The notes: generated by a model not told the origin, from the letters alone. A stretch of 64,000 nt of DNA from Cyanidioschyzon merolae (GCA_000091205.1 AP006494.2); one strand, 5' to 3'; positions 1,618 through 63,275 are shown, counted from the first letter of the stretch. Numbers and translations: made by a program.

Positions 1618-1879
1618 GTACTAAAAACATTCACTGTTTCGCTTCGAGATTATATGTAAGAAGTACAAACTTCCATGAACGACCAGGGTTTGCAAAGAAA
1701 GCCCTTGCCGAGTGAAGAAGAGTCCCTGGAGTACTCAACAGCGGTGCATACGCATACCAGGGATCGTGTCTGAGCAACGAAACGCTGAGGCGTAGCGGTG
1801 TCGGGATCCCCGACGATTAGCTGGTGGACCTCGCACCGCGCGATGCAATGCCCTCTGGAATGCTCGGTACCCTAAACGC

Positions 1880-2311: not shown

Positions 2312-2402
2312 ACATCATGGGTGTTACGCTTTCGTTCAGCTTGCGCTCGGGCAGCGACGGCTACGATGCGACGCTCGCGGGCGCTGACGAGATCTGGGCG
2401 AT

Positions 2403-3878
2403 GTGCTGTGGCCTGCAGCACAGAGGAGTTGCTTGCTAGCACTGAAAACGTGGTTGTTGAACTGTGGTCTCGAACGTTGCGCCAAACAAATGCAGTCATT
2501 CACTGTTGACGGACTTGAGTCTGTATTGAATGATGGATCGAAGTTTGCATTCGTACTTAGCAACCCGCGATGCTCGCTGGTGAGCCAGAGCGTTCAGCTG
2601 GAGCGAGCGCAGCTCACGCGCCGTCCTATTCGAAGACGCCGGTGCGTGCTCAAAATCAACAGCCTAGCGCAGCTTCTCTTCGCATCGTCTTGGGCAGCTT
2701 ACGGGTTCCGCGAGCTTGAGCGCCGTTTAGAAGGGCGCCTCGTAACAGCGGGTGCCAGAAGACCCGTGCACGCGGGCGGCGTCGGGGTACCACCCTCGTT
2801 TGCCGGTTCGCAGTACCAGACTGTGGTCGTGTGGCTTCGAGAAGGTGAAAATCTAAGGCTCCACGACAATCCAGTCATAGAAAAGGCACTAGCACTCTCC
2901 AGAGAGGGAGCCAGTACCCCCGATGCGGGCAGATCGTCAGGTCCCGACCAGTCTTCGTGGTTGCCGACACGTTTGTTGCCCATATTTATCGAAACGCCCT
3001 GGGACAAGCATGGACGACTGCGCACCTGGCGACAGCAGAAACAAGTTAGGGAATGCGTTCAGTTCCTTGGGGAGGCGCTCCACCAAACCGGCAGTGGACT
3101 TGTGTGGGTTCGCGTCTCTGACACACACCTGACGCGTCTCGAGGATATGGCCAATTTGAGGACTGCTGCGCTCGTGGAGACCCTTGCATCCCTTGAGCTT
3201 CACTCTCTGACTGCGGTGACGTATCCTTGCGGCGGGACCCGATTACAGGGTCTCGAAGAGGAGATACTCGTTCAGCGCCTTGGCTCCAGCACAGATGCTG
3301 ACGCAGCAGCGAATGCTCTGCAACGCCGTGCTATGTGTCGCGCGATTCGGCTCGTCAGCGTTCAGGATACTGCGAATACGCTGTTCGCGTTGGCGCGGCT
3401 CCCGTTCTCGATTGCAAAGATGCCCGATGATTGCGATGCGTTTGCGCAGGCCCTGGACACACTGGGAGAGCCCGAGCCAAGCCAGCATGCACCGGTCTCA
3501 TTACCGCCTCTGCCCCGCGAAGCACTGGATTCTCCTTTTTACTACAATCCCGAAATCGTATCCGGAAAACCCCCGATGGTCGATTCCCCTGATGCACACC
3601 AACCCTTTCATGAGCAATTCGTTCTCGAAGCGCTTGAAGCGTATGCCAAATCCGAGACGCCGCTCGTCATGATTGCTGATGATACGATTCAAACACGGAG
3701 CCAGGGCATCCTTGGGGTCGCCATGGAGCTGGGTTGCCTCTCGCCGCGGCGCTTCTGGCACGCTATTCGAGAGCATCTTCCGACAACATCCATTCGTCGC
3801 CAGTGTGCGTGGTTTGATATCATCCTTCACGATTTCGTACGTTTATTGACATGGAAACGTGGTATTCACCCAGCATGA
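2403..3878 (+). CDS. Hypothetical protein, 491 aa as tracked, no recognisable domain
   Basis: Long uninterrupted ORF with coding-like composition. The tracked start is GTG; the first in-frame ATG (MQSFTVDGLESV...) is at about 2490. Confidence 0.4.
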   Translation: MLWPAAQRSCLLALKTWLLNCGLERCAKQMQSFTVDGLESVLNDGSKFAFVLSNPRCSLVSQSVQLERAQLTRRPIRRRRCVLKINSLAQLLFASSWAAYGFRELERRLEGRLVTAGARRPVHAGGVGVPPSFAGSQYQTVVVWLREGENLRLHDNPVIEKALALSREGASTPDAGRSSGPDQSSWLPTRLLPIFIETPWDKHGRLRTWRQQKQVRECVQFLGEALHQTGSGLVWVRVSDTHLTRLEDMANLRTAALVETLASLELHSLTAVTYPCGGTRLQGLEEEILVQRLGSSTDADAAANALQRRAMCRAIRLVSVQDTANTLFALARLPFSIAKMPDDCDAFAQALDTLGEPEPSQHAPVSLPPLPREALDSPFYYNPEIVSGKPPMVDSPDAHQPFHEQFVLEALEAYAKSETPLVMIADDTIQTRSQGILGVAMELGCLSPRRFWHAIREHLPTTSIRRQCAWFDIILHDFVRLLTWKRGIHPA

Positions 3879-10215: not shown

Positions 10216-11149
10216 TTTCAAAGCAACGCAACACACGTTGTCTCGTCGAAAGGAGCGCTCCCAGGCGAGCGACACCCAGATCGCGAACGCAAGGGTTTCC
10301 ACTCGACAGAACGTTGACGCAGATCAGCGTTCTCTGATTTCCTATTCAACAGAGCGTTTACGTGGACCGTGGATCCCAGATTGCGTGATGCATATTGGTC
10401 ATCGAAATAGCGTCCGTCATGCTGTACGCTACGTCCAAGTCCCATTAGCCATATTTAACCTTGAATGTGCTCGTCGTTTCGTACGTTCTGTTACGCGTCG
10501 AGTCTGAGGCGATGGTCCGCCATGGCGCCCACAGCGCTGGTGTGGATGCGCCACAGAGACAGAGCGGCATTGCCACATCACTGGAAGCGACAGCTCGTGA
10601 GCATCTCGACCGATACGAAGCTGGAGATGCCGGAGCAATCACCCGATGGCGCTGCTGCAATCACGCCCGCAGACAGTTCTCGCACGGGATACGCACCGCG
10701 TATACAGTGGATCGCCGAGTCCAGCCCATCTCGTGATAGAACGCACCAGTGAGCGCGCAGTTAAACCAGCATAACCGACGTTGCCTGGATGAATCCTGTG
10801 CCTCTTCTGGACTCGTATGGAGTGCGCATGAAAACGGCACAACAGGTGTTACCTCAGAGATACGGATTCGTGATATCGCCATGTACCAGCTTAGAACCGC
10901 ATGTAGTTCCGCAAAGCATACCATCACAGATGCACTGCTTCGGCAGTATCCACACGGAAGCCTCACGTGCCGCTGCGGAAAAAACGCGGGAAATTGCGCG
11001 CGATCCATTTTCCCTTCGATGATTCGAATCGCGTCCATCGCTGCGACACGCCCCCGAGGCCTACAACGCGTTGCCGAATATCTCATTCTAAACGATTCGT
11101 TAGCGAATAGTTTGTCCGTGTCAGCTCATTCGTTGACGAGTACTGGATC

Positions 11150-20101: not shown

Positions 20102-20935
20102 GGGATGTTGGATTCTTTTGGATGTCTCAGTTTCATTTGTAGAGAAGGCTCATACGATCGCTGTCTCGAATCATTGAGGTCTTTTCCCAGGCACCTGGTG
20201 ACGTCCCTCTATTGGAAAAAATGGTATTTCACCGTTCCCGTGCGTACGAACTGTTGCTGATTCTATCGGGGGTAGAGCTGCTTTTCATTCCAAGGTGCTC
20301 TCCGTAGTTCAGCCCCATCGATAGAGTGTTTTCCATTGTGGACCAAAATTGATCGCTCCACTCGGCGAAACGCAGAAGCGTTCAGCATACGGTAACGCAT
20401 CGGGAGTACACGTTTTCTTTCTTCTGGAAGCCCTTCCCCATCCGGAAAACTCCTTACCTAAGGGCATAAAGAAGTTCGCTCATTTGAAAAATGAAAAAAT
20501 TTACGTGAATGCTATGCATCTGGAAGTCGAGGGTGCTGAAAGTTACTCATCGCCGGTTTTGGCGAAAATTAGGAAAAAAATCCTCTTCACGCCAACCACC
20601 AAGCGAGCAAGAGCAAGTGATGAAGAGCAAGAAGAAAAGAACAAGAGCGGATATGAGCGAGAAAAGGTGTTTGTCCGACGGGACAATGACGCGAATGTAG
20701 TGGCACAGAGGGTGCGAGTTCTAGCAATTCTCGCTTTGGTGCGTTCAACCAGCGGCAATGCACGCGAGGAGTCCATGAATCGTGACTTCAACGCCGCCAT
20801 CAATACCAGATGATACGCGGTGTTAAAGTCAAGACCCGAGGAGCTGACGAAATCGAACTTTGTATGGCAGCCTCTCAAGGCCACAGTGAGCAAGTAGAAA
20901 CTGAGGCCGATAGCAGGCGCCGGTCAGAAACCACA
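20102..20935 (+). pseudogene. Degenerate TnpB/Fanzor-like RuvC-nuclease gene remnant, copy 1, including a conserved roughly 120-nt 3' flank
   Basis: ORF 20349..20813 ends ...VRVLAILALVRSTSGNAREESMNRDFNAAINTR*; RDFNAAINT is the TnpB-superfamily RuvC-III motif. Upstream in other frames: a RuvC-I-like GMLDSFGCLSFICREGSYD at about 20105, and a RuvC-II-like NAMHLEVEG at about 20510. An in-frame stop lies upstream at about 20322. The 3' flank is homologous to the flanks of copies 2 and 3. Confidence 0.5.
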
Positions 20936-23900
20936 GGGAAGCGCCTGTGAGTAGGTTTCAGTTTACCCTACGGTGGTGGCATGTTTTCGCTCCGTTAAAC
21001 TTTTGGAAATGCTCAGTAATATCGAACTACAGATCACTATGAGATATCATGAATTCCCTGAAAAAAATCGTCTGCGTGTATGTGCACGGCATTCAAGTCT
21101 TGCTGGAAGGCTGAAACGCGTACCTGACCGGTGCCTTGCTCCCAGCAGGCACCGAATACACGCTCTCCTGGCCACTGATTTTCTGTATCACAAGCCTTCC
21201 AAATTTCAGCACAATCCCCGAAATGAGTACTGAACGAATCTTTCTCAAGTTCGGTCGCCCCAAAGTCGCTGGGCGCTTTGCAAGCACGAGGCGTTCTCGA
21301 TGCCGACCGAGGCGTTCAGGTTCCAATGACGAAAGCGCTCGAGCGTACCGTTGTCAGTGCAAGCACACCATACCAAGCGTCTAAGCGCTTCGATTGTCTC
21401 GCAATATGAATTTCAGTCTTCGAACAGGATACCATATCAGGTATATTGCTCCATTCTGTTCTCTTGTTCTCTATCTGTTTCAGTGAGCACCCGTGCTCAC
21501 TGATGCTTTTATGTTATCCTGAACGCCTCGAAGGGAATCAGACAGAATCGAATCCAGGACCTGTTCTACGACCTCGTCGACGGTACCGCATTCCAGCCTT
21601 TTCGCACTGCAACACGTCCAGCCCTGTGGGCTACCATCAAACGGAACGATTCGTCGGTCACTTGGTTTTCCAACGCATCATGCTCGTTGGCGAATGCATG
21701 CTTTCTGTCTCCATATAACAGATAGCGTTGGCGACCCCAGCGCTCTCCCAGGTATTCCAGCCAAAGATCGTCTCCGAGCGTCCTCTGGACGCACAAGTAC
21801 TCTCTAGACGAAGCGTACATAGCAATTCGCTCTGCGCAGTAGGGTCCACGGAGCGTCGGCAAGACTCTGTTCAAAGTCATTCCCCTTGCTTGTATGCCTC
21901 CTGGCGCCGATTATGTGCGAATGTCGTAAATATCGAGCCCAGGAAAAGTTGAGCAGCTTCATCTGCTTCTCGTTTACATCGTTGCCTGCCTCCGTGCCCC
22001 AGCCCTGGCGATATGGCGACAGCTGTGATGCCCGTCAACCCGAGATCTACACCCTCGTCGAAGTCTCTCTTGTCGTCTACCTTTAGCGGTTGATCATGAC
22101 TTTCGTTGCTCGACTCAGACCTGATTTTTTAGAGACTGAATGCAGTATGACGTTCCGTCAGTCTCCATCGTTTCTGCGAGCCTCTTTTCATTTCTGCCAT
22201 GTAATCGAGCAGCGTTGAACGAGCGCCGTCAAAGCTCCTCGTAAAGTTTTTCGGATGCTTCACGCTTTGTCGCAGAGGGACGATCTTGCTTCGCAGTGTG
22301 CTTTACTCGGCGAGGTGGCAGGGTTGTGGTCACTCTACTCCATAATCGATCTTTGTCTCCTGGAAAAATACGCACTGAGTGGAACGTTGGATTGGAACCT
22401 GGCTCGTCTATCTGTGTATTCACGTATATGGACAAATCCTCAAATCCTTGTTCGTAACCTTCCCCGTCGTGAACACGCCCAAGGATCGAAGCGCCTTATT
22501 CGGTACCCTCCCGCGCACCATGAGCAGTAGCGCAACACAGCATATTAAGGCTAATCGATGAAGAGAACGAAATGTCGAAGAAATTCCGTGTCATGGTTGC
22601 GAACGGCTCGTGAATTCAACTGTGAGCTCTAAAACAGAGTTCGGCAACAGAGCGCATACCTTCGACTGGATGCAAACTGGGCGAATGTGTCTGCGCGAAG
22701 AGCAGCTCACTGCCAGTATGCGCTGCATACGCCATGAGCGCTTTTAGTCATGGAACGCCACGTTGTCCAGAATAAGGGCGGAGGAGTGTGCGAAGCGGAA
22801 GTCACAAAGTGTGCCTCGACGAAACATGCGGTTTTGAACGATCCTATCTATTTGGCGACTGGCAGATGATCACAGACTGGCATCGCCGCTGGCGCGGATG
22901 TTGTCGGATACTCGCTTGTTGCTTCTTCACGATCAGCAGCCTTCCCTTCTTTCAATACACATATTGAGGTCTGCTTTTTCCCCAGAATGAATTCTCATTG
23001 AATGAGACCATCATTCGTCTTATGAGTTATAAGCGGTCGCAGATCAGTGTGTGAAATCTGTAGTGCATTTGCCAGCGCACGACCGTGTCGCAATAGAGGC
23101 GAGCATTTTTCTTCGTCCGTCGATGTCTCTTCTTCACCGCTCGAGTTAACGGTACGGACACTGCATATTCTGCGGCTGCTCTGGTTGTAATTGTTCGAGA
23201 ACACATGCATTGGAATGGATAGAGGACAAGGCAGTAATGTTCATGGAGTTTAACTTGTTCTTTCGCGGATACACGACGTTTGGAACGAGAACCATCAGAG
23301 GGGCGCTTCAACCACTTGCTGACCGCACAATGACTGGCCGCAACGAGTAATACCGTTTTTCGCGTGCCTGCAACGACAGGATCAGGTCTTTCCGCTGACT
23401 TTCTCCAATCCATTGGATATTTTTTCTGCTGAATATTTGCCAGGAAACCAAACCAAAACAAAAAGCACATTCTTATTCACGTGTTCGAGAATGCACTCCT
23501 CTAAGCATACTGCTTTAGCGAACAGTGGTTCAAGCACTGCTGCTGAGCTTGGTACTTGCAGCAGCGAAAAGGCGTTATTTACCTGTAAAGTGCGTTCGAT
23601 TCGAAGGAGGCACGAGGCTTGCACAAGCGCGTCCAGTGCGGATTCAGCGAGTCTGTTCAGATTCGGTGCATCGGTCACTAATCGAAACCATAGCTTTGTC
23701 CTTCGGTCAGGCTCGCGTGAGCGCAGAGCGCGAGGACCGCTTCGGCCTGAAAGGCTGGATCTAGCGGCCCTCTACGAGCGTCCACAACAACGACTCAGTT
23801 CCTCGAGGGGTCCGACTTCGATCCAGAAGTTTTCTCTTATTCGCCCCAGTGCAGTAACGGGAGACAGAGAGGAAGCGCGGCGACACGAAGATCGCACCAC

Positions 23901-41238: not shown

Positions 41239-41700
41239 CGGCGTCAGCCGCTTAATCTACAGCGATCAGTATACAGCTGATGAGATTGACGGCCCAAGTA
41301 GGGTTCTGTGGAGTGCGGTTCCTTCCTGAAGCCCCGGAAGCTCGAGAGACGCCTCGCCACACCCGCGCTCGGCGGTACTCGAGTGCCCTGAGTGATACCA
41401 ACCACCACCACAGTCAGTGTGTGCGTGTGTGTGCAGCGTCCAAGTCAACGTCAACTGCACTGTGGATCGCTCCACTTGATCCACAGCCAGAGTTCTTGAA
41501 CGCTGGCACGTGTCGGCACCCGAACCGCCTCAAAGGTCCAGCGAACGCTGCTATGGCTTGACGGAGCCGGCGCTCGGCGAAACGGAGCGCTGCCCGCCAG
41601 CGTACCAGGCGAACGGCCATTTTCAACGGTATCTGCTGCTGAACATACGTTGTCTATTCTTTACGCTTCGCTGTTGCGTGCCTTGAGCTGCATTCTGACG

Positions 41701-43698
41701 ATGCGGTGGTTGTCGTCAGGTTGGCAGCGGCTAGTCCATAGCGCATTCTCGAGGAGGTTCGGAAGTGTTTCGGGTAAAACCGGTAAAGTTGCCGCTTCTC
41801 GCTTGCCGGTGCTGGCTGCAACCGTAACCACGCTGAGCCTGTCCTACTACTGGGTGCAGCGGGAACGTCTCGTGAGTCGTCAGTGGTTCCTTACAAACCT
41901 CGTTGATGTTCCAAGTGCAAAAATTGGGTACCCCGTGCGAGCTAGTTGGAGTGAGGGTCCCGACACAAACGCAGCCGCAGTGCACTCTTGGCGTCTGCTC
42001 GAAGAAAAACTGCGACGTGAGGAGCAGCGACTTCATGGACCTTCTCCAACGTTTCAGATATACACTGCTGCTGATGGTAAGAGGAGCGTCACGTTCACAT
42101 TGCGCCTTGACGACCCGAAACCGCAACAACCGCATGTTCGCCGTGCTGCTCCCGGTGATGACTTGCTTGCGGCGTTTGCTACCGTGCTAGAAGCTCTACA
42201 GGAACTCCAAAAGTCAACGACAGACAAACAGCCAGGTAAGGATGAGACACCTGCCTATGCGGTCTCTGTGAGTGCTCAGAGCTCTGCAACGTCGACGACC
42301 GTAACCGCACGATGTCCAGAGGGTCAGATGCTGCATGTCTTTCTGCCGCACGTGGGCAGCTTTGCCGCAGAGCTTTGCTACTCGAAACCAGCGGATCAGG
42401 GCGCACTCAGTGATCAGGAGATTACCGCACTGGTCGAGGCGTATCGCATCGTCGCACGAGGACTCAGCAGTGCTGGACTCGAGTTCGCTACCGGTAATGG
42501 AGACAGGGCATCATCGGCAGCCTCTGGAGGCGCGCCTCCATCAAAACGACCCTGGAGACGCTCACGGGATGACGTTAGTGTGCGGATTGTACAGGAAAAA
42601 TTGGAAGCGATGGGCGTGGATGTTTACTTACCGAGCGCATTCCGGCCCAGAGAAGGTGCCGATGAGGAGCCGCCCGCCGCAATCGACTGGACGACACTTG
42701 CCGGCTACGATGACATCAAACAGCACATCGAGGCATCGCTGGTGCTCCCGCTGCGACACCACGAGGTCTATGACGCAGTCGCCAAGGGTACGCGGCGGAT
42801 ATTCAGCCCGAATCGGCCTCGTGCAGTGCTTTTTGCTGGGCCTCCGGGCTGTGGGAAGACCTCCACAGCGCGAATCATTGCGGAGCAAGCAGGAGTCCCT
42901 TTTATCCATGTGACCCTCGAAGCCGTTGTATCGCGCTATTACGGTGCCTCGGAGAAGCAGCTTTCAAGCATTTTCGACCTGGCCCTCGAGCTCGGTGGTG
43001 GCGCCATCCTTTTCATAGACGAAGTCGACGCTCTGGGTACTTCTCGAGATCGCAGCGACATGCACGAAGCGACGCGTCGAACGCTGTCCGTCCTCTTGCG
43101 ACGACTAGACGGTCTGCATCAAGATACTGGGAAGCGTTTGCGCATGCGCAGTTCTTTGTATGATGAGCAGCCGTTCGGTCCGCCGACGTCGTTGGCTCCA
43201 CCGCCACTGGGCTCAACCGAGTACGCAGCCACAGATGCTGACGGCTGGTTTGTCGTTGTCGCAGCCACAAATCGTATGCAGGATCTTGACCCTGCGCTCT
43301 TGAGCCGATTCGATGTGGTGCTGGAGTTCCCTCTTCCTGACTTTGAGACCCGCCTGTCCATCTATGAAATGTACGCCAAGCAGCTGAAACCTGATGATGT
43401 TCGAAAATTAGCGGCCGCCACGGAGGGCTTTTCGCCGCGCGCGATCCACGACAGTTGTTTGGCTGCAGAGCGCCTTTGGGCAGCGGGGATTATTCGCGGC
43501 GAACATGCTCGCAACAGCCTTCCCGACGTTAACGCGTACCTGGCAGCACTAGAACTCCGCAGCGAGCGTTCGTATCCAGGAGCGAGCTCTGGTCGCGCAC
43601 CTCGCCCAGGACTCTGTGATGGTCCAAGTTCTGATGCGGCACAGTACATTCATATGCCGAACTGTCGGTACACTCCACAGGCAGTGGATCAGGTCTGA
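41701..43698 (+). CDS. AAA+ ATPase with an N-terminal presequence-like region and one transmembrane segment (membrane-anchored, possibly mitochondrial)
   Basis: Walker A AVLFAGPPGCGKT, Walker B ILFIDEVDAL, sensor-1 VVAATNR. The N-terminus MRWLSSGWQRLVHSAFSRRFGS is followed by the hydrophobic VLAATVTTLSLSYYWV. The tracked start at 41650 is TTG; the ATG is at 41701. Confidence 0.8.
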   Translation: MRWLSSGWQRLVHSAFSRRFGSVSGKTGKVAASRLPVLAATVTTLSLSYYWVQRERLVSRQWFLTNLVDVPSAKIGYPVRASWSEGPDTNAAAVHSWRLLEEKLRREEQRLHGPSPTFQIYTAADGKRSVTFTLRLDDPKPQQPHVRRAAPGDDLLAAFATVLEALQELQKSTTDKQPGKDETPAYAVSVSAQSSATSTTVTARCPEGQMLHVFLPHVGSFAAELCYSKPADQGALSDQEITALVEAYRIVARGLSSAGLEFATGNGDRASSAASGGAPPSKRPWRRSRDDVSVRIVQEKLEAMGVDVYLPSAFRPREGADEEPPAAIDWTTLAGYDDIKQHIEASLVLPLRHHEVYDAVAKGTRRIFSPNRPRAVLFAGPPGCGKTSTARIIAEQAGVPFIHVTLEAVVSRYYGASEKQLSSIFDLALELGGGAILFIDEVDALGTSRDRSDMHEATRRTLSVLLRRLDGLHQDTGKRLRMRSSLYDEQPFGPPTSLAPPPLGSTEYAATDADGWFVVVAATNRMQDLDPALLSRFDVVLEFPLPDFETRLSIYEMYAKQLKPDDVRKLAAATEGFSPRAIHDSCLAAERLWAAGIIRGEHARNSLPDVNAYLAALELRSERSYPGASSGRAPRPGLCDGPSSDAAQYIHMPNCRYTPQAVDQV

Positions 43699-43779: not shown

Positions 43780-43860
43780 TGTATCCCGTCGGCTGCGGAT
43801 CAGTTCTGGGCATTCTCGCGCATCGACTCATGTCGGATTCATATAGAACGGATCCATTAA

Positions 43861-44901
43861 CTCTGTCGCACACTCTAGCGTTTGGGCCTCGTTCCCTGGT
43901 CATGAATACCAGCACTTGCGGGTATTTTATGCAACTGCTCCCGCTTTCCTATCCCTATCTCTGACTTTAAATACGCTGGTGTCTCCTTTCCTTACAGCTT
44001 CGTTGTACGAAGACGAAGGATGTTGATCGTGAGATTGGAGCCCCAACTTCGCAGCCCCGATCTGTTGTGCAACTATGCCATGCACACCCGGGAGTTGCGA
44101 TCTACGGTTCGCATGCCACTTGCATCTCCCTAGTATACGGAAACAGTGCGCCCTTCACGGCTGCGAAACTTGAATATGGTCAGGGGTATCCCATGGTTCC
44201 CCGCTGGCCCTCCGAGCACCACTACATGGCGCGTGAACGCCCGTTTCATCGCTCGGTACATGCCCTTGACGGATGTAGGAGGATTGTATGGAAGCGTCGC
44301 TTAGCGTCTGCACCCGGTGGCCGTTCCAAGCGATCACGGGCTGCCTCTGGGTGATACGTGCTCCACTTACGTCCTCGGTGCACTGCATATGCAAACACGT
44401 GTAGTCGCATTTTTATGACGTGACTTGTGGAACGCATCGTTGTCCATCATGCAACAGGTATCGGGAGGAGAATCCAGGTTCGGGATCCAGTCCAGCACTA
44501 CCGATTCGTCTGGACTCCACTCCTGCAATGCAGAGTCAGACGCTGCACCGGCGGCGGTCGCTGTGATGACTCACGTCCGAGTCCGAGGCCACATCGACGC
44601 AAAATGAGGACTTGAGAGCGTCCGGGAGCATCGCCGCTGCGTCGAGTCATGCTGCCGCCACACGTCATTTTGTCGATGCGCGCCACGAGAAAACGACGCG
44701 TGTTTCCAAAGCAAGCGATTGGTTGGAGTGAAAGGTTCAATAAATTAGCTGAATGAGGTTGTGAGCAATTCGTCAACCGCCAATGTCGAGAATTTTTTGT
44801 CGTTCATCCAACGGAGCGAATCGCAGCGTCCTCGAGTTGCCCCGGAATACAATGATCAAAATCGTGGGGTGAACGTGATTCGAGCATGCCACAAGTAAGG
44901 G
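43861..44901 (+). repeat. Dispersed direct repeat, copy A (1,041 bp; roughly 99% identical to 61525-62565)
   Basis: Colinear match from ctctgtcgcacactctagcg... to ...cgagcatgccacaagtaaggg, with about 11 substitutions and no large indels. A weaker similarity continues for about 25 bp beyond the 3' edge. It contains only short ORFs that I cannot place (for example 44067..44354). Confidence 0.9.
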
Positions 44902-45214
44902 GAGAAGTCGAGTGGAGGCTCTTGTATAAAAATTCTATTGTGATCTCCGTTATCTTACGAACTCTTACCCGAGAGGCGTCGCGAATCATCTCAGTTCCTG
45001 TCACCAAACGCGTCCCAGCAACACGGAGTCGGACACGACACTTCAAATCGACGACAGAGCGTCCTAAAACTCGTATAAATCAGTAAACACCAACTGGTCG
45101 CACATCGGATCATGAGAATGCACATGTAAGAGTGAGCGAAAAGAACGAAGTGCAGAAACAGAGCGCCCAGTACAATGGACAATTTTCATTTGAAATAGCT
45201 CGTCGATGAAACAA

Positions 45215-46527
45215 AAGTTCATGTAAGATAAATGAATTCCGGCAGGGAGATGCTTCTCAGCCTTTTCGGTAGGCCCGCTGCTATTGGTTTGCGCTTCTCC
45301 TGGTAATCATCGAGCCTGAGAGGCTGCCCTACGATGTTGGCTCGCGTCAGCTCTGCGGGCTCGTCTCCAGCACCGCACACCGTCTGATATTGAAGGCCGC
45401 GTCAAAGTCCCGGTTCACAAACTCAACGCGTTTCTTTCTGTTGGTGTAACACACCAATTCAATGAGTCCTCGAACTCGTGCCCTCATTGCCATTTGTTCT
45501 CCTGTCAGATCTCTGTACTCTTGTAAATCCTCCGGGCTCCGCTGGCACTTTTCCATCTAGACCTCCTGATGTGTACACCCCAGCTCATGGTGCATATAGA
45601 ACGTTCGGAAATTCATCAATGGGTATTGTGACAAAACCGTGTGCGCACTTCTTATACGTTCTTGTCGTTGGAGCTGGTGTACACCCTTTTTTCGACATCC
45701 AGCGCCCTACTCCGTATGCTACTTCGAGCCTTTGATCCTTGTCCGCCTTGAGGGCGCTAAACTCACTGAAAAATTTCGTGAATGCACCCTCTTTCCTCCG
45801 TACAGTTTCATGCGCAGACGAGTCCACCGGGGCTTTGCGTACTCTTGCCACAACTCCTCGTCATGAGCAGCTTGAGTTTCTATGAATTCTAGAAAAGCTT
45901 CAAAGTCCGCTCCTCTGCTCGCCACCTGGCTGATCACTTCCAGGTGCTCCTTCACTGCTGAACTCAACGTCTCACTTTCCATCGTCGCATTCATTACTCC
46001 CTAGTCTCTATCGTATCTCGCTCTTTCGGACTTTAAGGAAACGTACGTCTTTTGGGGTAAGCTGCCGTCGATACGATATTCCCCATGCTTGGATGCTGCG
46101 ATGGTCATGATAGTCGTGTTCCCGGGGTACGGGCCGATTACGACAAAGGCGTTCTTGTCTATCTCCTGCGTCACAGGACCCGCCTGCTTTTTTTCATCGT
46201 GCTTTGCCGAGGGCGATATCGAAAACACAACAGGACGATCCGCCTTCAACAGCCGATCGTGTACACATATGGCTGTTCCATCGGTTTCGATCATCCCAGT
46301 AAATACCTTTTTCTTGCTCGTATTGAGACGTTTGAAATCGAAGATATTCTTCCAGTCCGTCTCTCGGTTTCCGCCGGTAACTCTGTTTTCCTTACATCGA
46401 ACTCCGGACAGATCTCCTTCATGATGCTGTAAATGGCGCTGGAGTCGATGGTCACAAAATGTGACTTGATGTTGCATAACGGAACGACAGTGAAGCGCTT
46501 CTCCATTAGGAAAGATATCCGTTCCAA
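45215..46527 (-). pseudogene. Degenerate TnpB/Fanzor-like RuvC-nuclease gene remnant, copy 2, with the conserved 3' flank
   Basis: ORF 45347..45556 ends ...MRARVRGLIELVCYTNRKKRVEFVNRDFDAAFNIRRCAVLETSPQS*, which is a RuvC-III motif homologous to copy 1 (RVRvLaiLaLV....NRDFNAAIN). A RuvC-II-like VKEHLEVISQ lies in ORF 45719..45994, and a RuvC-I-like [16 protein letters not shown] in ORF 46291..46527. The parts are separated by in-frame stops and a frameshift. The 3' flank (about 45215-45346) is shared with copies 1 and 3. Confidence 0.5.
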
Positions 46528-46771
46528 TGAACCTGCTTTTTTCTCAAACCCAGCTGCATCCCCGCCTTGCGTTCAAGTTCTCGCTCCGAAGAAAAAAGAA
46601 ATAGCACAGGATGAGGGGATAGCATCTTTTTCCATCTTTCTTCATATCTGATGCCTTTTCTGCAGGGTTGACACGCCCCAAGATTGCACCGTGCTCTTTC
46701 ATAGCCGCACGGATTACAGAAGCTTCATTCTTGCTTCTGCGTGATATCCTCTTGTCAACTAATTCGATCTC

Positions 46772-47412
46772 CTATTCATGCTGGCAATCGTTCGTGATGC
46801 CATCGATGATGGCCCGTATCCATTTGCAAGAGAGGCCCGGGTAGCGTGTCAAGACGCAGCGTATCATGAAGCGTTTGAGATTCACAATCATATGGCTATT
46901 CCGGTTCGTGAGGTCCTTCATCGCCCCGTATTCGTAAATAGGCGAGTCAGCTTTGTATCGAGTGTCGTTGACGCGGTATTCGGCGTAATTTTCGCGCAGG
47001 GCATGCACTCGCTCATCTCTCCACAACAGGTCCCTTGTACCAAGCATCAGGTGGCTGAGAAAGCTCTTGTTGAAAAATTGTTTCGGATTCTCGACTGTTT
47101 TTATGTCCGTTACATCCTCTTCCAGCTCCTTCACCAAATACATTGATCCAGTAGACGCTTTCCAAGTTCAAATCGAGTAAGACGTCACATGTTTATGATC
47201 CACTCTTGCATCTTTTGCTTATAGGGATCCTTGATGTAACCTCCACGAAAAGCTTTGACCACCACCTCGTCGTATTGTCGTCTGCCGTCTAGCTTTCGAA
47301 GGCCGGCCTCCTGCCTCCGATCCTTCGTCTTCTCCTGTTCCGCTTTCCTCGGCACTGTTTTTTCGTCTCCGGCAACTGGTGACATCAGACTACCTGGATC
47401 CTCAGCTTCCAT
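46772..47412 (-). other. Two adjacent coding-like ORFs (47412-47185 and 47143-46772); possibly the N-terminal part of the Fanzor-like copy 2, or an unrelated small gene
   Basis: The first ORF is basic and NLS-like (DEKTVPRKAEQEKTKDRRQEAGLRKLDGRRQ). The second is coding-like and 123 aa. They lie immediately 5' of the copy 2 remnant on the same strand, and the total of about 690 aa would fit Fanzor1 size. Speculative. Confidence 0.25.
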
Positions 47413-48556
47413 GTCCTTAACTTTCCTTTAATTATTTCTGAAAACGAACGCTCTTTGAATGCTTCTGCTATAAATCGCGAAAATCACTTTGATGCCCTAA
47501 TCTGAGAATGGAACACAACTGCATTGAAAAACGATACTTTGCTATGGGTGTAACGCAAATATATGTTGTACGCCAGAGCAACATACTGATAATATGGATC
47601 GGGTTTCTCTTCAACGGGGAAATGCGCTTCGTCTCTCATGCCGGCCAGGTATGAAGGTGCGAGTATATACCGCGCTTTATCGAAAAAAGAACAGAAACTG
47701 ACTACCAACTAGAAACTCGATAAAAACTTCGTTCCAGCACTGAGATACCCATTATAATTGGGAGCATTTTCTGTATTTTCGAAAGTCTTCCTTCTAGACG
47801 AGGGTCCCGCGAGTTGGACGATTCTGCCGGGCTAGTGCATCATGATCCCCAGTGGCGGATGCTGTAGTTAGACCTGGGCAGCTCATCCGAAACGCAATTC
47901 ATTCTGGGGCTATGAGCGGTTATGCCGTGTCTGGGCATCGTTCAGGTCTCAGTGGTCTCCTATCACATGGCTTTGCACCGCTGCATAGAGTACGTCTATT
48001 TGCACAAATTGGAGGCTCTCATCTTGATGATGGATCACGATTCTGTGACTAATGAACCACATCTTGAGCCGAGGCCTTCAGTGGTACAGCAATGCCGATC
48101 TGTATCCGTGCAGCACCGCAGCACCGGAATAAGCGCTATAGCGGGTGCAGGAAAGCGGGTATTCGGTGCACGATAGATCATACAAAACAACCAGTATATC
48201 CGAGAGGAACTACGGATGATAGAACCTCGAGGTGGGACGCAGCTTTATGGACGCTCCCGAATGCCAGTATCCATCCCGCACGCTGGGCTCCGTAGTCTAC
48301 GGAAACGAATCGCCAAACCAAAAATTCAGCAAAAAATCCTCAGGACAAGTCAGTACAAATTTATCAATAAAGATACTAAATGGAACCTGCCGCTGGATCG
48401 CTCCTGTCTGAAGCGCTGACGAAGCACTTGATTCGCAGCGTTGCGTAGCCTCCCCGCTGAGACGCAGTGCAGCGAAGCAGGTCCGTGGCTCCTACCTACC
48501 CGAAATAGGGTTCCTGTTCCGGTTAGGAAAGAGTGAAGGTTGGGTAAGCAGAATTC

Positions 48557-50482
48557 ATGAACGTTTTCGAGGAGGAAATTGCGAGAGCGGTGGCTCTTAC
48601 CGAACGGGCAGTGCTGACGCGGGAGCCGCGCCTCATCGCCCGTGTCCTGCGCTCGCTGGGGAAGCTAAGACGGTGCTGGAACGGAAGACTCTTTGAGCAT
48701 CGTACCAAGAAACTTGAGGCCCTTGTTGCATCTGAAATCATTGCGGTTGATCTCTTTCCAGAGGACGCCGAGGCGCTGAAAGAGGAGCAAAGAAAGAAGC
48801 AGCGGGCACGTCAAACGTCCAGTACCGGCGCTGAGCAGACCGGCACCGACTCGACGAAGACGGGTCAGAAAACAGGAACGCCCGACGAAGCATCAGAGAC
48901 ACCAGTCGAAGAGACTAACGGTAAATCCGAACGAGAGCTTGGCGCTGTTCAGCGTTTCGAGTACGCGGTGAAGGACCCGGTGCTCGCTGCACAGCACGCG
49001 CATGCCGCACTTCGCCGGCTACTGGAGCGGTTGGAGCAAGGCGACCCGAGCGCACACAACGCAGTCTTGCTCGAAGATGTAGATGCGGCACTAGAACCGC
49101 TCTTGTCACGTAACCAACGCGCCGCCGCTGCGGCGAAGGGCCTTGGCGTGGTGCAGCCTTTGGCTGCTACGCGGTCCGAGGCTAGTATGATCTTGTCGAA
49201 CGGGGTTTCGACGGATTCGCAGCCAAACGAAACAGCTGCTGCTGGACTAACGAAGCAAAATGCAAACGCTCGCCAAATGTCTGGAGTATCGTGGCATGCG
49301 CTTCAACCGGAGAGCCTCGTGCTTTTGCATCTGCTTGTCGTCTACTACCTGCTCGACGCACATGGTGACCATAAGCTGCAGCTCCGTGCCGTGGACTGCG
49401 CGGATCGCCTGATTTCGCTCTTGGATCGAAGTCCTCGGCGACATACCATGGACGAAATCGCAGCACGCTGCTACTATGCTTTTACGCTGGCCTACGAATG
49501 CGTTGGACGTCTTTCGGAATGCCAACCGCGCTTGCTGAAGGCTTATCGCACTGCTTGCGTTCGTCGCGATCACGCTGGTCAAGCCGTGCTCTTGAATCAG
49601 CTGCTTCGCTCCTATGTTCTGGAACGGCGCTACGCGCAAGCGGATCAATTGTACAATCGCGCTCCATTTCCCGACATTCGGAGCAACAGTCAGCTGGCTC
49701 GCTATTTCTACTACATCGGACGAGTGAAAGCTATACAACTGGATTACACAGAGGCATTTCGTTGCTTGAATAACGCGCTGCGCAAAGCGCCTCAGCACAT
49801 GGCGACTGCGTTCCGGATAACGATTCTGCGATTGCTGGTACTGGTCCAGTTGCTCATGGGCGAAATTCCAGAGCTCCAAGTATTTCTTGGAGAGCGCTAC
49901 GCTCCTGATGCTGCTGTATTTCGGCGAGCCATGTACCCTTACTTGCAGATTGCAAACGCAGTACGTCGCGGTGATCTCCAACGTTTTCAGCAAGTACTTG
50001 AGGAGAATGCCACCTGCTATGAACAGGACGGCAATGGCTATCTCGTTCGGCGACTTCGCCACAATGTCATCAAGACTGGACTTGCTCGCATCGTGGCTGC
50101 CTACGCCCGCATTCCTCTGAAGGAAGTTCAGGAGATTCTGGGCCTGGATGATAGCTCCAGCACCGAGAATGTGGTGGCGAAGGCCATTCGTGATCGGGTC
50201 ATTCGGGCAAATATTGATCGGGATCAACAGTGTCTCGTGTCGGCGAGCCAAACTGACCAGTACCAAGGTCGCGAGCCGGCACGTATGTTCCATGAACGGA
50301 TTCAGTTTTGTATGGACCTCCATGAAGAGGTACTTCGCGCGATGCGCTTCCCAGACGACAAAAGAAACGAAGCCAACCTCGAGATCTTGCGCGAGATGCA
50401 ACGCGATGAGGCCAAGATCGAGCAGGCGCTCGCTGAAGGAGCAGAACCCGGCGACGAGGACGATACCGATGATATCCTCTAA
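48557..50482 (+). CDS. RPN3: 26S proteasome regulatory subunit RPN3 (PSMD3; PCI domain)
   Basis: [91 protein letters not shown] is near-identical in pattern to PSMD3 [59 protein letters not shown]. ATG at 48557 verified. Confidence 0.9.
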   Translation: [641 protein letters not shown]

Positions 50483-51685
50483 TAGTGCTCAGCTATGACG
50501 TATAAATGATTTCGCATGGTATTCGAGAAGCACACCAGAGGGTCCTGCATCCATGCCGTGCGAAATGCATGGTGACTTCGGCGTTGACCGCACGCCTATA
50601 TTCAGAGCAATGCGGTCTGGAGCACAGCTGCAGTCGCGCGTTTTTGTTGGCTTGGTTTTTTGACGGGCTTTCGGAAGAGAAATCTATCTTTTAGAGTGGA
50701 GAAAACTGGCGGAAAGCTTTTAGGGTGTCATTGCTAGCTGGCGAGAAATGGCCTGACTTGCTCAAGCCAGACATTTTACGGTCAGCAACTGGATGAACCA
50801 ATGTGCTCTTGGTGCCTATTCTGAACGTTGCGTGCCGAAAACGGGGCAAACGGAACCCAGTAAACACATGGTTATCTGCTGATCAATCCATTCCATTGCA
50901 TACGTAATCTGGGAAACACCACAACAGAACGCATAGTTTGTGATACTTCCGTGCCGTTGGTCCCAAACGATGATGAAATGGTGTGGACGGACAAGAAAGA
51001 AAGTACTTTTCTCTTGATGATCGACGAGATCTGAACAACATATGACCGATTTCGTAGTAAGAACGGAACCGCGTACCACAGGAGGCACTAGTCTTTGTCT
51101 TACGTGGCGAGAGTTTATCCGGGAAAAGTGGTAGACCTGCATATGTGTACTGAACTAAAGACAAATCCGATGTTCGCAAAGAAGAGGCAAACGAGCATTC
51201 CGAAACCATCAGCACCAGTGGCGATGCTATCCTATGGTCGTCAACAAGTCGCCAAAAGGATACGATCGTTCTATAGCGCATGCTTCATCGACGCTTTGTG
51301 CGACATTATCTTCGCATACTCCGCTAGTCTGCTCTCAGAGTGCGTATCATTCCGCAACCCAGAAGTATTTGAGGACTATGCTGGTTAGATTGGTGCTCAG
51401 CTGATCTCTGTGCCAGGCTATTCGCGATGGAGCACACCGGTCGAAGGCGAGTCCTCCTATGCCGAACGTCCTTTCTATGCTGAAGAATCAATAGACGGGT
51501 ATTTCGCATTTTATCGAAAGCGAAAGCTACGGGACGCTAGGAATGATCGAGCAGCTTCGTACTCGAGGGAGGCTCATCTGGCATTCCTCGCCTCGACGTA
51601 GCTCGCTCAGCAAATATCCGCAGGAGCTCTGGACGCAGCTCTGCAAGCTGTCCAGATTCTTACGGAATTTATCCATCAAACTTTC

Positions 51686-53035
51686 GTGCTTGAACACAAC
51701 GCATGTTCGAGACAGAAGATGCAGCACGGCCTGACCGTTGGACCAGAGATTTGCACATGCGCTTCGCGGAAAATTCTCGACGCTCCGCAGTGCGACGTTG
51801 CCGGTCGAAGCGTCTCCAGCACAGGTGTCAAAAAGGTTCAAACACGCCTGAAAATCCTAAACTGTATATTGTTCAATGTCGAGGGCGTCGTGAATTTCGC
51901 CTCGTGGGCGTTGCACCCGCAGCACACTGACCCAGACATATGGGCTCTGGAGGAAGGAACTCTTGGCGTGACAACGGGCGCGAATGACGAGCTGTTGCCA
52001 AAAGAGATCAAAGAGGTAGCGAGCATCGACGAGATGTTGCAGCCAGAGCGAGCGTCGCTTCAGATCATCGGATCTTATCGTGTTGCTCTTGATCTCGGAA
52101 CGATGGGCGTCGTATGCAAAGGACGCTTCAAACATGAGGTCTGCCTTCCATTGACAAGCCGTACTATGACGTTTTCCTGAACAAAGCCCTCGAGAGCAAA
52201 CAGGATGTTCGCCCCGATGCCGAGCGCTCGGATCTTGCTCAGGCGTTTATTTAATCTGGTATCTATGTGGCACTTCAAGACCCTGCGGATCAGTGTAGAC
52301 ACTTCTGTATTGTACGGAATGACCTGTTCAATGCGGCACGGCTACTCTCTTGAAGCAAATATAAAGCTTTCGAACAAATTCGCAAGCAGCATTGGCGGAG
52401 ACGATCCAAGTTCCTCGTTTACGAGGGGGGATTCGGAACCGAGTCTCTTTCCAGGAGGTGCGCACTCGCCAACTTGTTCAATATTCTCGAAATGGAAATG
52501 ACCGATAAGCCGCGTCGCTCTTATTGGCAGCGAATGGCGCTGCCCGTGCTGTATTCCACGAAAGCCGCACCCCGACTCTACCGACGACAGCGACAAACGT
52601 TTGCAGGAATCGATTCTGTACGATCTCTGTCGATAAGTACAGGGCGCCGGATACCTCCCATGACCGGAGCATATGACCACGCTGAAACTGGTACAGAAGC
52701 AGAGTCGAAACCGAACCGCAGTCACGAAACGGTCGACTCTCATTTGAGCTAACTCCAGGTATCGAGACAATTTGAGTTTACTGCCCTGTTAAAATGTGAT
52801 TGCGCAAGCAACCAAGCGCACAAGCATATGCTGCATCGAGACCTGAACGCCTCGATCAACATTGCGAAATGTGTCGTGCTGCAGGAGCCTCAAACGGCAC
52901 TGTGTCGATAAAACTTTCGATGGAATCTTCTCGGGCTCCTTACAGGCGTTCTGTTGAAATGGGTAAGACTTTCAATGAGAAACAAAAGTATCAGCCATTA
53001 GAGGGGCGATTCCTTGCCCGACTGTATCCGGGCAC
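51686..53035 (+). pseudogene. Degenerate TnpB/Fanzor-like RuvC-nuclease gene remnant, copy 3, with the conserved 3' flank
   Basis: Hand translation of 52753-52911 gives ...LLKCDCASNQAHKHMLHRDLNASINIAKCVVLQEPQTALCR*, a CxC remnant plus the RuvC-III motif HRDLNASINI. Its tail KCVVLQEPQ is homologous to copy 2 RCAVLETSPQ. A RuvC-II-like FNILEMEMTDKPRRSYWQRMALPVLYSTK in ORF 52474..52752 aligns with copy 1 NAMHLEVEGAESYSSPVLAKIRK. A RuvC-I-like YRVALDLGTMGVVCKGRFKHE lies in ORF 51686..52180. The three parts sit in different frames and are separated by stops. Confidence 0.5.
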
Positions 53036-54184
53036 TGGTATGAACCTGGTCAGCAATCCAGCAAGGCCTGGACGCCGTCTCTCTATATTCGGGGAACGAG
53101 TTTCCCGAGCGACTGGTGAACGACAATCCGAATCCGTTCTGCCATACTACTTAGCGTGCAAGGACCGAGCGTCCACGAAACTGGTCGTCGAGTGGAACCC
53201 ATCGCTTTGAGTACATACGCTCATGGATGGCGTGCGGAAAGCACTCGTGCGCTGCCGGCCCTGTGCAGCATTCATGAGCGACGCATCGCTTCTAATGCTC
53301 TCGCCTCCACGAACCAGATTGGAAGCACTCGTGCTCTGCGGGTATCGTCTTACACCCACGAGAACCCGACCCTGACAGAATGGTGGAAGCAGCAGCGTCC
53401 ACCGCAGAACGATAAACGCACATGGTGTCGCACGAAAGACGCAAATGATCGTTTCGAACGACGTTTGTGTGCTCAGGATCGTCTTGCGAACATCTGTTGC
53501 GAAACCCTTCCCATATACCCACCCGGTTCCATATCCAGAGCATGCCTCTAAGCAGTGCAGAGCTGTAACTGCAAGCGCGCCCTACACAAACACCCGTGGT
53601 ATCTTGCAACGATCAACAGTCGCTGCCGCCTTCGGATGCTTCTTGATGGCACGAATCGAGCAGCCGAAGCGAGCTTCACTGCTCATCCGCGCTTAGTGAG
53701 GTCTCTGCATACACGTGATCCGCTAAACGTTGTTTTCATAGATGCATGTAAAGCGCGTCCACCAGGACCTGGACATGCCCCGCGCCAAAAAGTCTCCGCG
53801 GATTGCGGAGCGCTTTCTGTGAGCTCGCCAGCGACAAGCGCTTCTTGTTGCAGAGTCATGCTGTACTAGGTCTCTTTATTCGTGTGGCGTTGAGCGTGAG
53901 TACGCTTAAAACAGTACCGAACTCGCCATGAGGTTCGCTTGTACACAACGCGCTCCGGTTTCGCGTGGAAAGCTTTATCGCCGGATCTGCATCGAACGCA
54001 GCTGGGCGCCGGTAGAGGGCGCTCATCTCCATTGCCGCCAGCGTCTATGATCCATTGCACATGCAAACTGGCACGCTGTCCAGTCCAGGTAGGTTCCGAC
54101 GCTGTACGCGGCAGGCAGGCAGTTTGGACACTACGAAGGCAACGACCGTCCGAAGCGTGCATCGAAACCACGATAGGTTCGCGT

Positions 54185-60231: not shown

Positions 60232-61524
60232 GTCCGATCGTAGACGACATGTCTAGCGATCTCAAGCCGTCCTCCGTGGTGAGGCGGAAGCAGCGATGCA
60301 GGCCTGCGCCTCGCAAAGACTCCGGTAATGACCATGCTGCACAGCATCCTGGATACCTGGTGACGCAGAGGCGGTCGCTGCTGCTCCGGGAATGCACCAT
60401 AGCGAACACGCGCACAGCCGTTCGCAGCGGCGCTGGTCGAATACAACGCCCACCTGCACGGAAATAACACGCTGGAGAAGCACCAGATGGAGTTACCAAC
60501 AGGCTGCGAATTCGCGGTATCCGTTGTCGTCGTCGCACCTGAGACGTGTTCTGCTCATTGACATGCCCGAACGGAAGCATCCGGACTCGATTTCGTTTCT
60601 CCAGTGCACACCGCAGCTGTGAGATCGTTCCCAGCAGGCCATGAAGCTCGTCAGTCTTCGCATCCGCAGCAGTGCTTTAGGCTAGCAGGTCTCAGCGCAA
60701 ACGGCGCTGCGCGTTATGCTCCACTCGACGTCGTTCTAGGCTGCGCGTTGGCGTCAACTGTCGTCGATGTCGGTGCATCGTGCGGCGTCGCGATGTCAGC
60801 CTGTGGCACCCGCCTTGCACCCGTTAGCTTCATTCGAATTCACGCGTGTCTGGGACACAGCTTTGTAGGCAGCGGCGACGAGTCCGGTGGCGCTTCGGCA
60901 CTGCCAGCAGCAAGCTGCGGTGCCGATGCCATTCCTCCCCATGGCGCCAGACGCATCGCTCGTGAGTGCGAGCTTGCACCAGACCGGGTTGGGGACTGCT
61001 TTTCCTTCTGCCTGCTGTTTTGCTCTATGCATTTTCCGCGTTATTCACTATTTCCAATTTCTGTATCTGGAAACAGTGCAGTACCTCGCGGGCATGACGG
61101 ACGCCGCAGCAGTTTTTTCTGCTCGGTGTTTCGCAGGTTCAAGACGCAAAAGCCTTCGGTTTGCTCTGGTCTGCGCCCCAGTTCAGTCTGCGTAAACCTC
61201 ATAGGCTCTGCTTTCGTTGACACCCGTTAGGGCACAAGGTAATACCTTTCAAGTTTCGGAAACTTGTTGCGCATAGCGGAACGCTTTTCCTGTCGCTGTG
61301 GCAAAGCAGTGTCAGGGATTTCGCCGAAGATCAAAACCTTACCAACCAGCTCCTGTTTCCATCGCCCGAAACAGATCCGAACCGGGATCCGGTACGAAGC
61401 ACGTTCGCAACCTGGATAAGAACGCAAGGCCTAGTTAGATGCAGTGCGAAGCCAAAAAACGTTGTTTCTGTTCGCTCCTAACGTATTCCAGCAGTCTCAG
61501 ACGATAACGGAACAGGTCTTCTAG

Positions 61525-62565
61525 CTCTGTCGCACACTCTAGCGTGCGGGCCTCGTTCCCTGGTCATGAATACCAGCACTTGCGGGTATTTTATGCAACT
61601 GCTCCCGCTTTCCTATCCCTATCTCTGACTTTAAATACGCTGGTGTCTCCTTTCCTTACAGCTTCGTTGTACGAAGACGAAGGATGTTGATCGTGAGATT
61701 GGAGCCCCAACTTCGCAGCCCCGATCTGTTGTGCAACTATGCCATGCACACCCGGGAGTTGCGATCCACGGTTCGCATGCCACTTGCATCTCCCTAGTAT
61801 ACGGAAACAGTGCGCCCTTCACGGCTGCGAAACTTGAATATGGTCAGGGGTATCCCATGGTTCCCCGCTGGCCCTCCGAGCACCACTACATGGCGCGTGA
61901 ACGCCCGTTTCATCGCTCGGTACATGCCTTTGACGGATGTAGGAGGATTGTATGGAAGCGTCGCTTAGCGTCTGCACCCGGTGGCCGTTCCAAGCGATCA
62001 CGGGCTGCCTCTGGGTGATTTGTGCTCCACTTACGTCCTCGGTGCACTGCATATGCAAACACGTGTAGTCGCATTTTTATGACGTGACTTGTGGAACGCA
62101 TCGTTGTCCATCATGCAACAGGTATCGGGAGGAGAAACCAGGTTCGGGATCCAGTCCAGCACTACCGATTCGTCTGGACTCCACTCCTGCAATGCAGAGT
62201 CAGACGCTGCACCGGCGGCGGTCGCTGTGATGACTCACGTCCGAATCCGAGGCCACATCGACGCAAAATGAGGACTTGAGAGCGTCCGGGAGCATCGCCG
62301 CTGCGTCGAGTCATGCTGCCGCCACACGTCATTTTGTCGATGCGCGCCACGAGAAAACGACGCGTGTTTCCAAAGCAAGCGATTGTTTGGAGTGAAAGGT
62401 TCAATAAATTAGCTGAATGAGGTTGTGAGCAATTGGTCAACCGCCAATGTTGAGAATTTTTTGTCGTTCATCCAACGGAGCGAATCGCAGCGTCCTCGAG
62501 TTGCCCCCGAATACAATGATCGAAATCGTGGGGTGAACGTGATTCGAGCATGCCACAAGTAAGGG
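61525..62565 (+). repeat. Dispersed direct repeat, copy B (1,041 bp; roughly 99% identical to 43861-44901)
   Basis: Same unit and orientation as copy A. Differences include ttgggcc/gcgggcc, cgatct/cgatcc, gcccttg/gcctttg, gatacg/gatttg, aatcc/aaacc, gagtcc/gaatcc, ggttgg/gtttgg, aattcg/aattgg, gtcgag/gttgag, ccccgg/cccccg and tcaaaa/tcgaaa. Confidence 0.9.
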
Positions 62566-63275
62566 AAGCTGAACTTTGGAGGTTCGCACACAAGTACTGT
62601 ACAGTGATATATATTACTTTACAAATCCTTCGCTACAGGGCGTCACATTTCGTTTCGATTCCCATGACGTAAAGCATGTCAGCAACACCGCGTCCAAAAC
62701 GTCAATCCGAACACAACACCGAGTATTGTTCACCTACAAATGAATCCGTAAGCCTTTCTTCCTGTCCTTGGCATGTCAAGTCCGTACATCTAGAAAAACG
62801 TCGGATTTTATTCTCAAGGCATGAACAGAGCCAGCAGTTTAGCGTTTCGTTTTCATCCGAAACGAGTACTGCAGTGCGATCAAGTGCAGCACCAGCATGT
62901 CAGGCGTCCATAGCAGACCCCTTTCTAGCCATACTCCTCGAAAGGATGTTGCTGCATACGCAACGCTGTCGATTCCGACACCTTCATGGGTGCCGCATGT
63001 ACCAGCTGAGCAAAAGTGCAACCCCACAGGAAACCAGGTGCACGCCATGGCGCCTTCTGTACAAGGACGCGCGATTCATCGAAAAGCCAACATATAAGAA
63101 AAGAAAAATGCGCATAATCGGAGAACGCTGGCCTAAGTAAACGTTTTGTCAATGGAAAATCGAAAAGCCAACGGGCGCCCCTGGATTACCATGCATCGTC
63201 GTCGTTGTGAAAGTTTCGCACTGTGGCGTTTCCTTGGATACTGCTCGGCGACGATTCATAACTTTAGTGTATGTC

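Follow-up and report, generated by a model that had tools for sequence, protein, structure and literature searches.

What fills the unannotated gap between an AAA ATPase gene (41650-43698) and the RPN3 gene (48557-50482) in the nuclear genome of Cyanidioschyzon merolae 10D, and what remains there of a nuclease gene? The question concerns a window of 64,000 nucleotides, the whole stretch of DNA analysed here, whose host was identified through exact protein matches: six of its ORFs are residue-identical to annotated 10D proteins (BAM80730, 80735, 80736, 80737, 80738 and 80741), all of them on one 859,119-bp record and one of them carrying the locus tag CYME_CML120C. Judging from the numbering of these accessions, no annotated protein seems to lie between the two flanking genes. 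An original prediction had placed in this gap, on the minus strand at 45215-46527, the decayed remnant of a Fanzor/TnpB-like RuvC nuclease. That reading stands, and the flagged stretch almost certainly belongs to a single CMe-1A insertion, old and dead; CMe-1A is a non-LTR element without terminal inverted repeats (TIRs), in which Fanzor1 is the only gene. As such, the feature is already known in kind, being a decayed member of a transposon family described in C. merolae in 2013.

Bao and Jurka reported in that year a single Fanzor1 family in C. merolae, listed in Repbase as CMe-1A, with a consensus of 3169 bp and about 150 copies, each around 80% identical to it (PMC3627910). The element has no TIRs, its target-site duplications could not be determined, and it carries one single-exon Fanzor1 ORF of 734 aa, which according to these authors is still intact in some copies; its first ~635 bp are shared with another element, TE-N2_CMe (PMC3627910). 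When the consensus sequence, obtained from supplementary file 2 of the same work (PMC3627910), was aligned with the window, positions 12-3082 of its 3169 matched the segment 48307-45248 on the minus strand with 78.9% identity; the two differ by 644 substitutions and 24 small indels, and their Jukes-Cantor distance is 0.25. Homology thus reaches to within 11 nt of the consensus start and stops at position 3082, and with the 5′ end projected at about 48318, the nearly full-length, 3′-truncated copy occupies 45248-48318 (minus strand). Its 5′ non-coding region (47416-48318, minus strand) is 77.1% identical to consensus positions 12-905.

This nucleotide homology along the consensus, in the very species that defines the family, makes the copy a member of CMe-1A, and a truncated one, with neither terminus (consensus 1 and 3169) complete. 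Copy and consensus share the host species, collinearity from position 12 to 3082, the degree of divergence (78.9% identity versus the published ~80%), the 734-aa ORF (here as a remnant) and the absence of TIRs; the copy differs in having lost the last ~87 nt and in its destroyed ORF. The end-to-end alignment also bears out the view that this is an old insertion, one of several copies that decayed independently. The predicted limits, in turn, were too narrow, since the pseudogene runs from 47415 to 45261 and the element from 48318 to 45248. An AT-richer island had been correctly noticed around the feature, as GC drops to 0.47-0.50 over 45-48 kb versus 0.547 in the whole window, although it had not been recognised as the transposon: because the CMe-1A consensus aligns across 48307-45248, this gene-poor island is the element itself. 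The copy has a GC content of 0.489 versus 0.523 in the consensus, and changes from consensus to copy run from G/C to A/T in 295 cases versus 199 in the reverse direction. The AT-richer, unannotated gap between the AAA ATPase gene and RPN3 is therefore explained by the CMe-1A copy.

When frameshifts are allowed for, alignment to the consensus protein of CMe-1 delimits the Fanzor1 (CMe-1) pseudogene, the remnant of the 734-aa ORF, at 45261-47415 (minus strand), where residues 2-721 of that protein are covered at 63% identity; the flagged stretch (45215-46527, minus strand) corresponds to its 3′ two-thirds. Roughly seven frameshifts (near 47191, 46586, 46551, 46378, 45794, 45610 and 45365) and four in-frame stops at conserved positions (codons starting at 47170, 46774, 46003 and 45559) break the frame, instead of the one stop and one frameshift originally counted, and two of the stops and at least four of the frameshifts fall within 45215-46527. 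No uninterrupted ORF is left, the remaining fragments measuring 69, 91, 158, 123 and 75 aa. The C-terminal 69-aa ORF ending in GLIELVCYTNRKKRVEFVNRDFDAAFNIRRCAVLETSPQS before its stop codon was found, as had been described, on the minus strand at 45347-45556.

All three RuvC motifs can be located in the copy. RuvC-I (46103-46141, minus strand) aligns to the consensus VVGADPGNTNIIT and has its catalytic Asp replaced by Tyr (codon TAC at 46129-46127, GAC in the consensus); this Asp, that of a DPG motif, is invariant in 74 homologues and aligns to the DPG/DPN motif of the Fanzor1 proteins PpFz and SpuFz. RuvC-II, IPIDEF(R)T (45600-45620, minus strand), keeps its Glu codon (45614-45612) and has suffered a 1-nt insertion directly 3′ of DEF; the Glu is invariant in the same 74-homologue alignment and matches DEFRTS of PpFz and DEYKTS of SpuFz. 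RuvC-III, NRDFDAAFNIR (45383-45415, minus strand), keeps its Asp codon (45409-45407), and its R-D-x-N-x-x-x-N residues, again invariant among the 74 homologues, align to NRD of PpFz and SpuFz. Of the D-E-D triad the copy has consequently retained the Glu and the third Asp, with Tyr in place of the first. Two upstream peptides, one starting with TIDSS and the other reading EHLEV, had been proposed as RuvC-I and RuvC-II. Both exist in the order given, in other frames, although neither is a catalytic motif: the former corresponds to a conserved block, hFvTiD, which lies well upstream of the DPG motif, and the latter belongs to a helical region between RuvC-I and RuvC-II.

Could these interruptions be introns, programmed recoding or sequencing errors in a live Fanzor1 gene, given that the RuvC-II Glu and the RuvC-III Asp are intact, that several long ORF fragments remain, and that intact CMe-1A copies have been reported by Bao and Jurka (PMC3627910)? 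The frame changes are 1-2-nt indels within conserved peptide blocks and not intron-sized gaps, and are therefore not introns, in a family whose published ORF is single-exon (PMC3627910); moreover, four conserved positions have become in-frame stops and the catalytic RuvC-I Asp is Tyr. As for errors, the window was compared with contigs encoding near-identical RPN3 proteins from eight independent metagenome assemblies (JGI, ENA). All eight carry the same insertion upstream of RPN3, 99.2-99.5% identical and with 0-1 gap over 3201 bp, with the same lesions, and ORF calling gives the same fragments in them as in the window copy. Eight concordant assemblies mean that the frameshifts are not assembly errors; the lesions are real, and a live gene, already largely refuted by these data, is very improbable. 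What we see is a Fanzor1 pseudogene, whose ORF and 5′ non-coding region are equally diverged from the CMe-1A consensus (79.6% versus 77.1% identity), which fits neutral decay.

The assignment of this pseudogene to Fanzor1 comes from its relatives. Its stitched reading frames retrieved 29 of them from a large protein collection, with E-values down to 3.5e-193, all metagenomic and some near full length. Mapped back by tblastn, they show homology across 47424-45261 and in three further remnants of the window. An exhaustive profile search then yielded 2925 cluster representatives at E ≤ 1e-3, 405 of them at E ≤ 1e-30, and an alignment of 74 full-length members shows an invariant D (in DPG), E (in DEF) and R-D-x-N...N; in the homologue P0027, the invariant triad residues are D420, E591 and D658. 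Against Pfam, neither the stitched remnant nor the intact homologues gave a significant match, the sole traces being a sub-threshold PF07282 at the NRDFNAAINIR motif of the homologue P0001 and a precomputed weak DUF8286. Likewise, neither phmmer with the remnant nor a 10-sequence profile found any match in the PDB, and recognition required the 74-sequence profile. This deeper profile matched exactly three PDB sequences, all of them Fanzor1 and with the three catalytic motifs aligned in each: Parasitella parasitica (9cf0, E = 1e-21), Spizellomyces punctatus (8gkh, 4.5e-16) and Guillardia theta (9cer, 2.6e-13).

Structure prediction followed the same pattern. An AlphaFold model of P0001 made with a 10-sequence alignment was discarded (pLDDT 37); an AlphaFold (AF2) model made with the 74-sequence alignment reached a pLDDT of 88.3 and a pTM of 0.86, this being a model of the full-length homologue P0027, ~36% identical to the flagged copy, and not of the broken copy itself. 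The P0027 model has the WED/REC/RuvC/NUC architecture of the Fanzor1 fold, and its top seven Foldseek matches in the PDB are SpuFz, GtFz and PpFz (E from 2e-17 to 9e-16, TM 0.53-0.72). We therefore hold it as firm that the CMe-1 family is Fanzor1 and that the window copy is its pseudogene. The fold (TM 0.6-0.72 for P0027) and the DPG, DEFRTS and NRD motifs are common to the CMe-1 family and to SpuFz1 (8GKH, 9CEU-9CEZ), G. theta Fz1 (9CER) and P. parasitica Fz1 (9CF0), whereas sequence identity to these three proteins is only 13-15%.

Fanzor and TnpB share the RuvC fold, which raises the alternative that the remnant is a fragment of a prokaryotic TnpB (IS200/IS605 or IS607), arrived by horizontal transfer or contamination. 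Bacterial TnpB (ISDra2, 8H1J) and Cas12f have the same RuvC core and D-E-D order as CMe-1, and Cas12 chains, Cas12f among them, and TnpB do come next in the fold search, although much more weakly (E ~1e-4, TM 0.2-0.35), with the Fanzor1 structures scoring 12-13 orders of magnitude better and remaining the sole PDB matches by sequence profile. CMe-1 further differs from TnpB and Cas12f in a large N-terminal REC/WED extension of ~400 aa, in the lack of a TnpA partner (no TnpA-like ORF is present) and in its eukaryotic nuclear host; the copy has nuclear genes of C. merolae on both sides and is syntenic in the eight other assemblies. A prokaryotic origin is thus hardly credible at all. Fanzor2 and IS607-type TnpB, compact TnpB-like proteins often accompanied by a serine-recombinase TnpA, fit no better: the Mimivirus Fanzor2 chain (9b0l) matched P0027 with only E = 1.8e-3 and TM 0.23, and no recombinase ORF in or beside the CMe-1A copy was found among the ORFs of the window.

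The Fanzor1 family to which the pseudogene belongs shows one peculiarity. In the NUC domain of SpuFz1 and TnpB, a CCCC zinc finger lies between RuvC-II and RuvC-III (PMC10432273), whereas CxxC is absent between the RuvC-II E and the RuvC-III D in 70 of the 74 clade members, as well as in the CMe-1 consensus. The CMe-1 clade of Fanzor1 appears to have lost this zinc ribbon, a clade-level difference that does not outweigh the evidence from fold and profile. The lack of TIRs in CMe-1A is another difference from characterised Fanzor1. Intact members are scarce: 344 stretches resembling CMe-1 were located in metagenome contigs and 80 of them fetched, and an ORF of at least 650 aa occurs in only 3 of 86 related loci, so that in nature, too, most of the CMe-1 family is dead.

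The 3′ end of the element deserves separate consideration. In TnpB and Cas12f systems, the RNA guide derives from the 3′ end of the element. Related copies of CMe-1A (metagenome 3′ ends, L007-L086) share, after the Fanzor stop codon, a structured module of ~75-90 nt. It comprises a stem-loop, GGCGNG-TTT-CNCGCC, in which one pair occurs as GC or as CG (14:12), followed by an almost invariant ACTACTGTAC and by a terminal hairpin that comes in two alternative forms, CGTTTTTC/GAAAGRCG and CGTCGTTCGA/TCGAACGGCG (shuffle z of -2.5 and -2.05); RNAalifold on a MAFFT alignment of the 3′ ends missed this terminal hairpin, the two variants being out of register. Such a conserved module is a plausible candidate for the scaffold of an omegaRNA. 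Among related copies, similarity runs on for ~12-16 nt past the 3′ terminus of the published consensus and begins ~12 nt ahead of its 5′ terminus (TGATTTTTTT), suggesting that the published CMe-1A consensus is slightly short at both ends. A covarying stem formed by the flank is not supported: for the outer stem, the duplex energy of each arm with the flank of the same copy, set against that with flanks of other copies, revealed no copy-specific pairing (p = 0.95), and the extension is taken as conserved element sequence.

In the flagged copy, the last ~87 nt of CMe-1A are missing or unrecognisable. For the 3′ tail, an HMM was made from 56 related copies, with the last 300 nt of each and 40 nt of flank, and its match to the window ends at 45248 (envelope to 45230); an HMM of the 3′ terminal module alone, which matches 75 of the 86 related loci, finds nothing near the copy. 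Where the module would be expected lies an unassigned spacer of 343 bp (44905-45247) with no detectable homology to CMe-1A, and a search for excess fold stability in 45247-45148 found none (z = -0.17). The copy cannot act because of its approximately seven frameshifts and four stops, the Tyr in place of the RuvC-I Asp and the missing 3′ stem-loop module; devoid of an ORF, of one catalytic residue and of the 3′ module, it is inert as a nuclease locus.

Its ancestor most likely worked as the characterised Fanzor1 proteins do. These are omegaRNA-guided DNA endonucleases dependent on a target-adjacent motif, with D383/E541/D606 as the active site (PMC10432273). By extension from them, an active CMe-1 protein would bind an omegaRNA whose transcript comes from the 3′ end of CMe-1A, a role that we infer for the 3′ module, and its split RuvC site (D-E-D) would then cut DNA matching the guide next to a target-adjacent motif; if TnpB is any guide, such RNA-guided cutting would probably help the element to persist. 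It is conceivable, if rather doubtful, that the CMe-1 lineage is a zinc-finger-less Fanzor1 variant, with the ~75-90-nt post-stop module, extended past the end of the consensus, as its omegaRNA scaffold, and with a few intact copies active in thermo-acidophilic populations of Cyanidioschyzon. If true, CMe-1 would be a eukaryotic RNA-guided nuclease naturally adapted to heat and acid.

Two of the related metagenome loci show a particular arrangement at this end: in L037 (2512-2567) and L040 (3642-3697), a 5′ end of the CMe-1A/TE-N2 type comes 56 bp after the 3′ end of a CMe-1A, which suggests head-to-tail or adjacent insertions.

The syntenic contigs also inform on the fate of the copy after insertion. 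Being common to all the sampled assemblies, the insertion predates the divergence of their strains, and it appears to be fixed in related hot-spring populations; an empty, pre-insertion site, sought among these contigs for target-site duplications, did not turn up, the insertion being there in 9/9 genomes. The element lies ~240 bp from RPN3, head-to-head with it, so that its 5′ end faces the RPN3 start codon. This position, together with the fixation in all nine genomes, gives some reason to consider a remnant co-opted by the host, either as promoter or regulatory DNA of RPN3 or as the source of a non-coding RNA. Polymorphism could be read in the same sense, as 1.25-1.33% of the sites in the remnant are polymorphic among the nine genomes, about half the density of the adjacent spacer (2.9%) and of the downstream non-coding DNA (2.7%). 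On the other hand, this density is four times that of RPN3 (0.31%) and similar to that of the spacer at 44905-45247 (1.46%), and the comparison suffers from small counts and from the want of an established neutral baseline. The equal divergence of ORF and non-coding parts from the consensus also argues against co-option, as do the Rfam and tRNA scans, empty over the whole window, and the lack of a structure signal on the 3′ side. Host co-option is, in sum, unlikely. The lower polymorphism of the remnant in relation to two neighbouring spacers (1.3% versus 2.7-2.9%) is not fully explained, and is too weak to indicate constraint. The pattern is not that of coding sequence under selection and gives no solid sign of constraint, and the CMe-1A copy appears to be drifting roughly neutrally.

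Other Fanzor1 remnants occur in the same window. Two homologous copies had been named beside the flagged one, and both were recovered. Copy 1 (20527-20956, plus strand) is a short C-terminal remnant resembling CMe-1, with 55% aa identity to CMe-1 residues 645-726, 69.5% nucleotide identity to the CMe-1A consensus, one frameshift and two stops; its identity to the flagged copy, put originally at about 79%, is 70.6% over 177 bp when 45317-45492 and 20701-20877 are compared. Copy 3 (51512-52917, plus strand) is divergent, with 32-33% aa identity to P0027 and CMe-1, at least five frameshifts and two stops, and its RuvC-III block (52831-52885) matches the family HMM. The list of three was incomplete: a fourth, also divergent remnant (22219-21255, minus strand) had been missed, with 37% aa identity to P0027 residues 366-680, six frameshifts and three stops, which lies convergent with copy 1, their 3′ ends ~300 bp apart. 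At 32-37% protein identity, this fourth remnant and copy 3 either have a much greater age or descend from another lineage of Fanzor1. Downstream of copy 3, on the opposite strand, the CMe-1A 3′ module HMM gives a sub-threshold match (E 0.053) at 53551-53590 (minus strand), which may be another eroded element end, or chance. Finally, a 249-bp segment at 10349-10597 (plus strand), 75% identical to consensus positions 6-253 and with no part of the ORF, probably derives from TE-N2_CMe, the short element with the same 5′ region as CMe-1A, as a fragment of it.

As one of ~150 decayed CMe-1A copies in a well-studied genome, the locus is of little weight by itself. Its value lies partly in annotation, as the reference apparently lists no gene at this place and three more Fanzor1 remnants in the window are unannotated. 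The by-products on the family side, namely the revised ends, the candidate omegaRNA module, the apparent clade-wide loss of the zinc finger in NUC and the rare intact copies from hot-spring metagenomes, are of possible interest for those mining Fanzor proteins for genome editing.

Two kinds of repeats complete the picture of the window. The flagged remnant had been described as lying immediately inside a 1-kb repeat. This repeat does exist beside it, as a direct repeat of 1047 bp with copy A at 43858-44904 (plus strand) and copy B at 61522-62568 (98.6% identity, 15 differences), although the two are not adjoining and 343 bp separate the element from copy A. It was rejected as a part of CMe-1A, having no match to the consensus. 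The two copies stand 17.7 kb apart with host genes between them, and the 86 related loci lack the repeat almost entirely. On the repeat side, the majority of the syntenic metagenome contigs stop some hundreds of bases past the element, roughly at the repeat. At the other end of the window, a tandem array of ~71-72-bp units, 94-96% identical to each other, extends from 1878 to 2322 and overlaps an ORF at 1735-2187 (minus strand).
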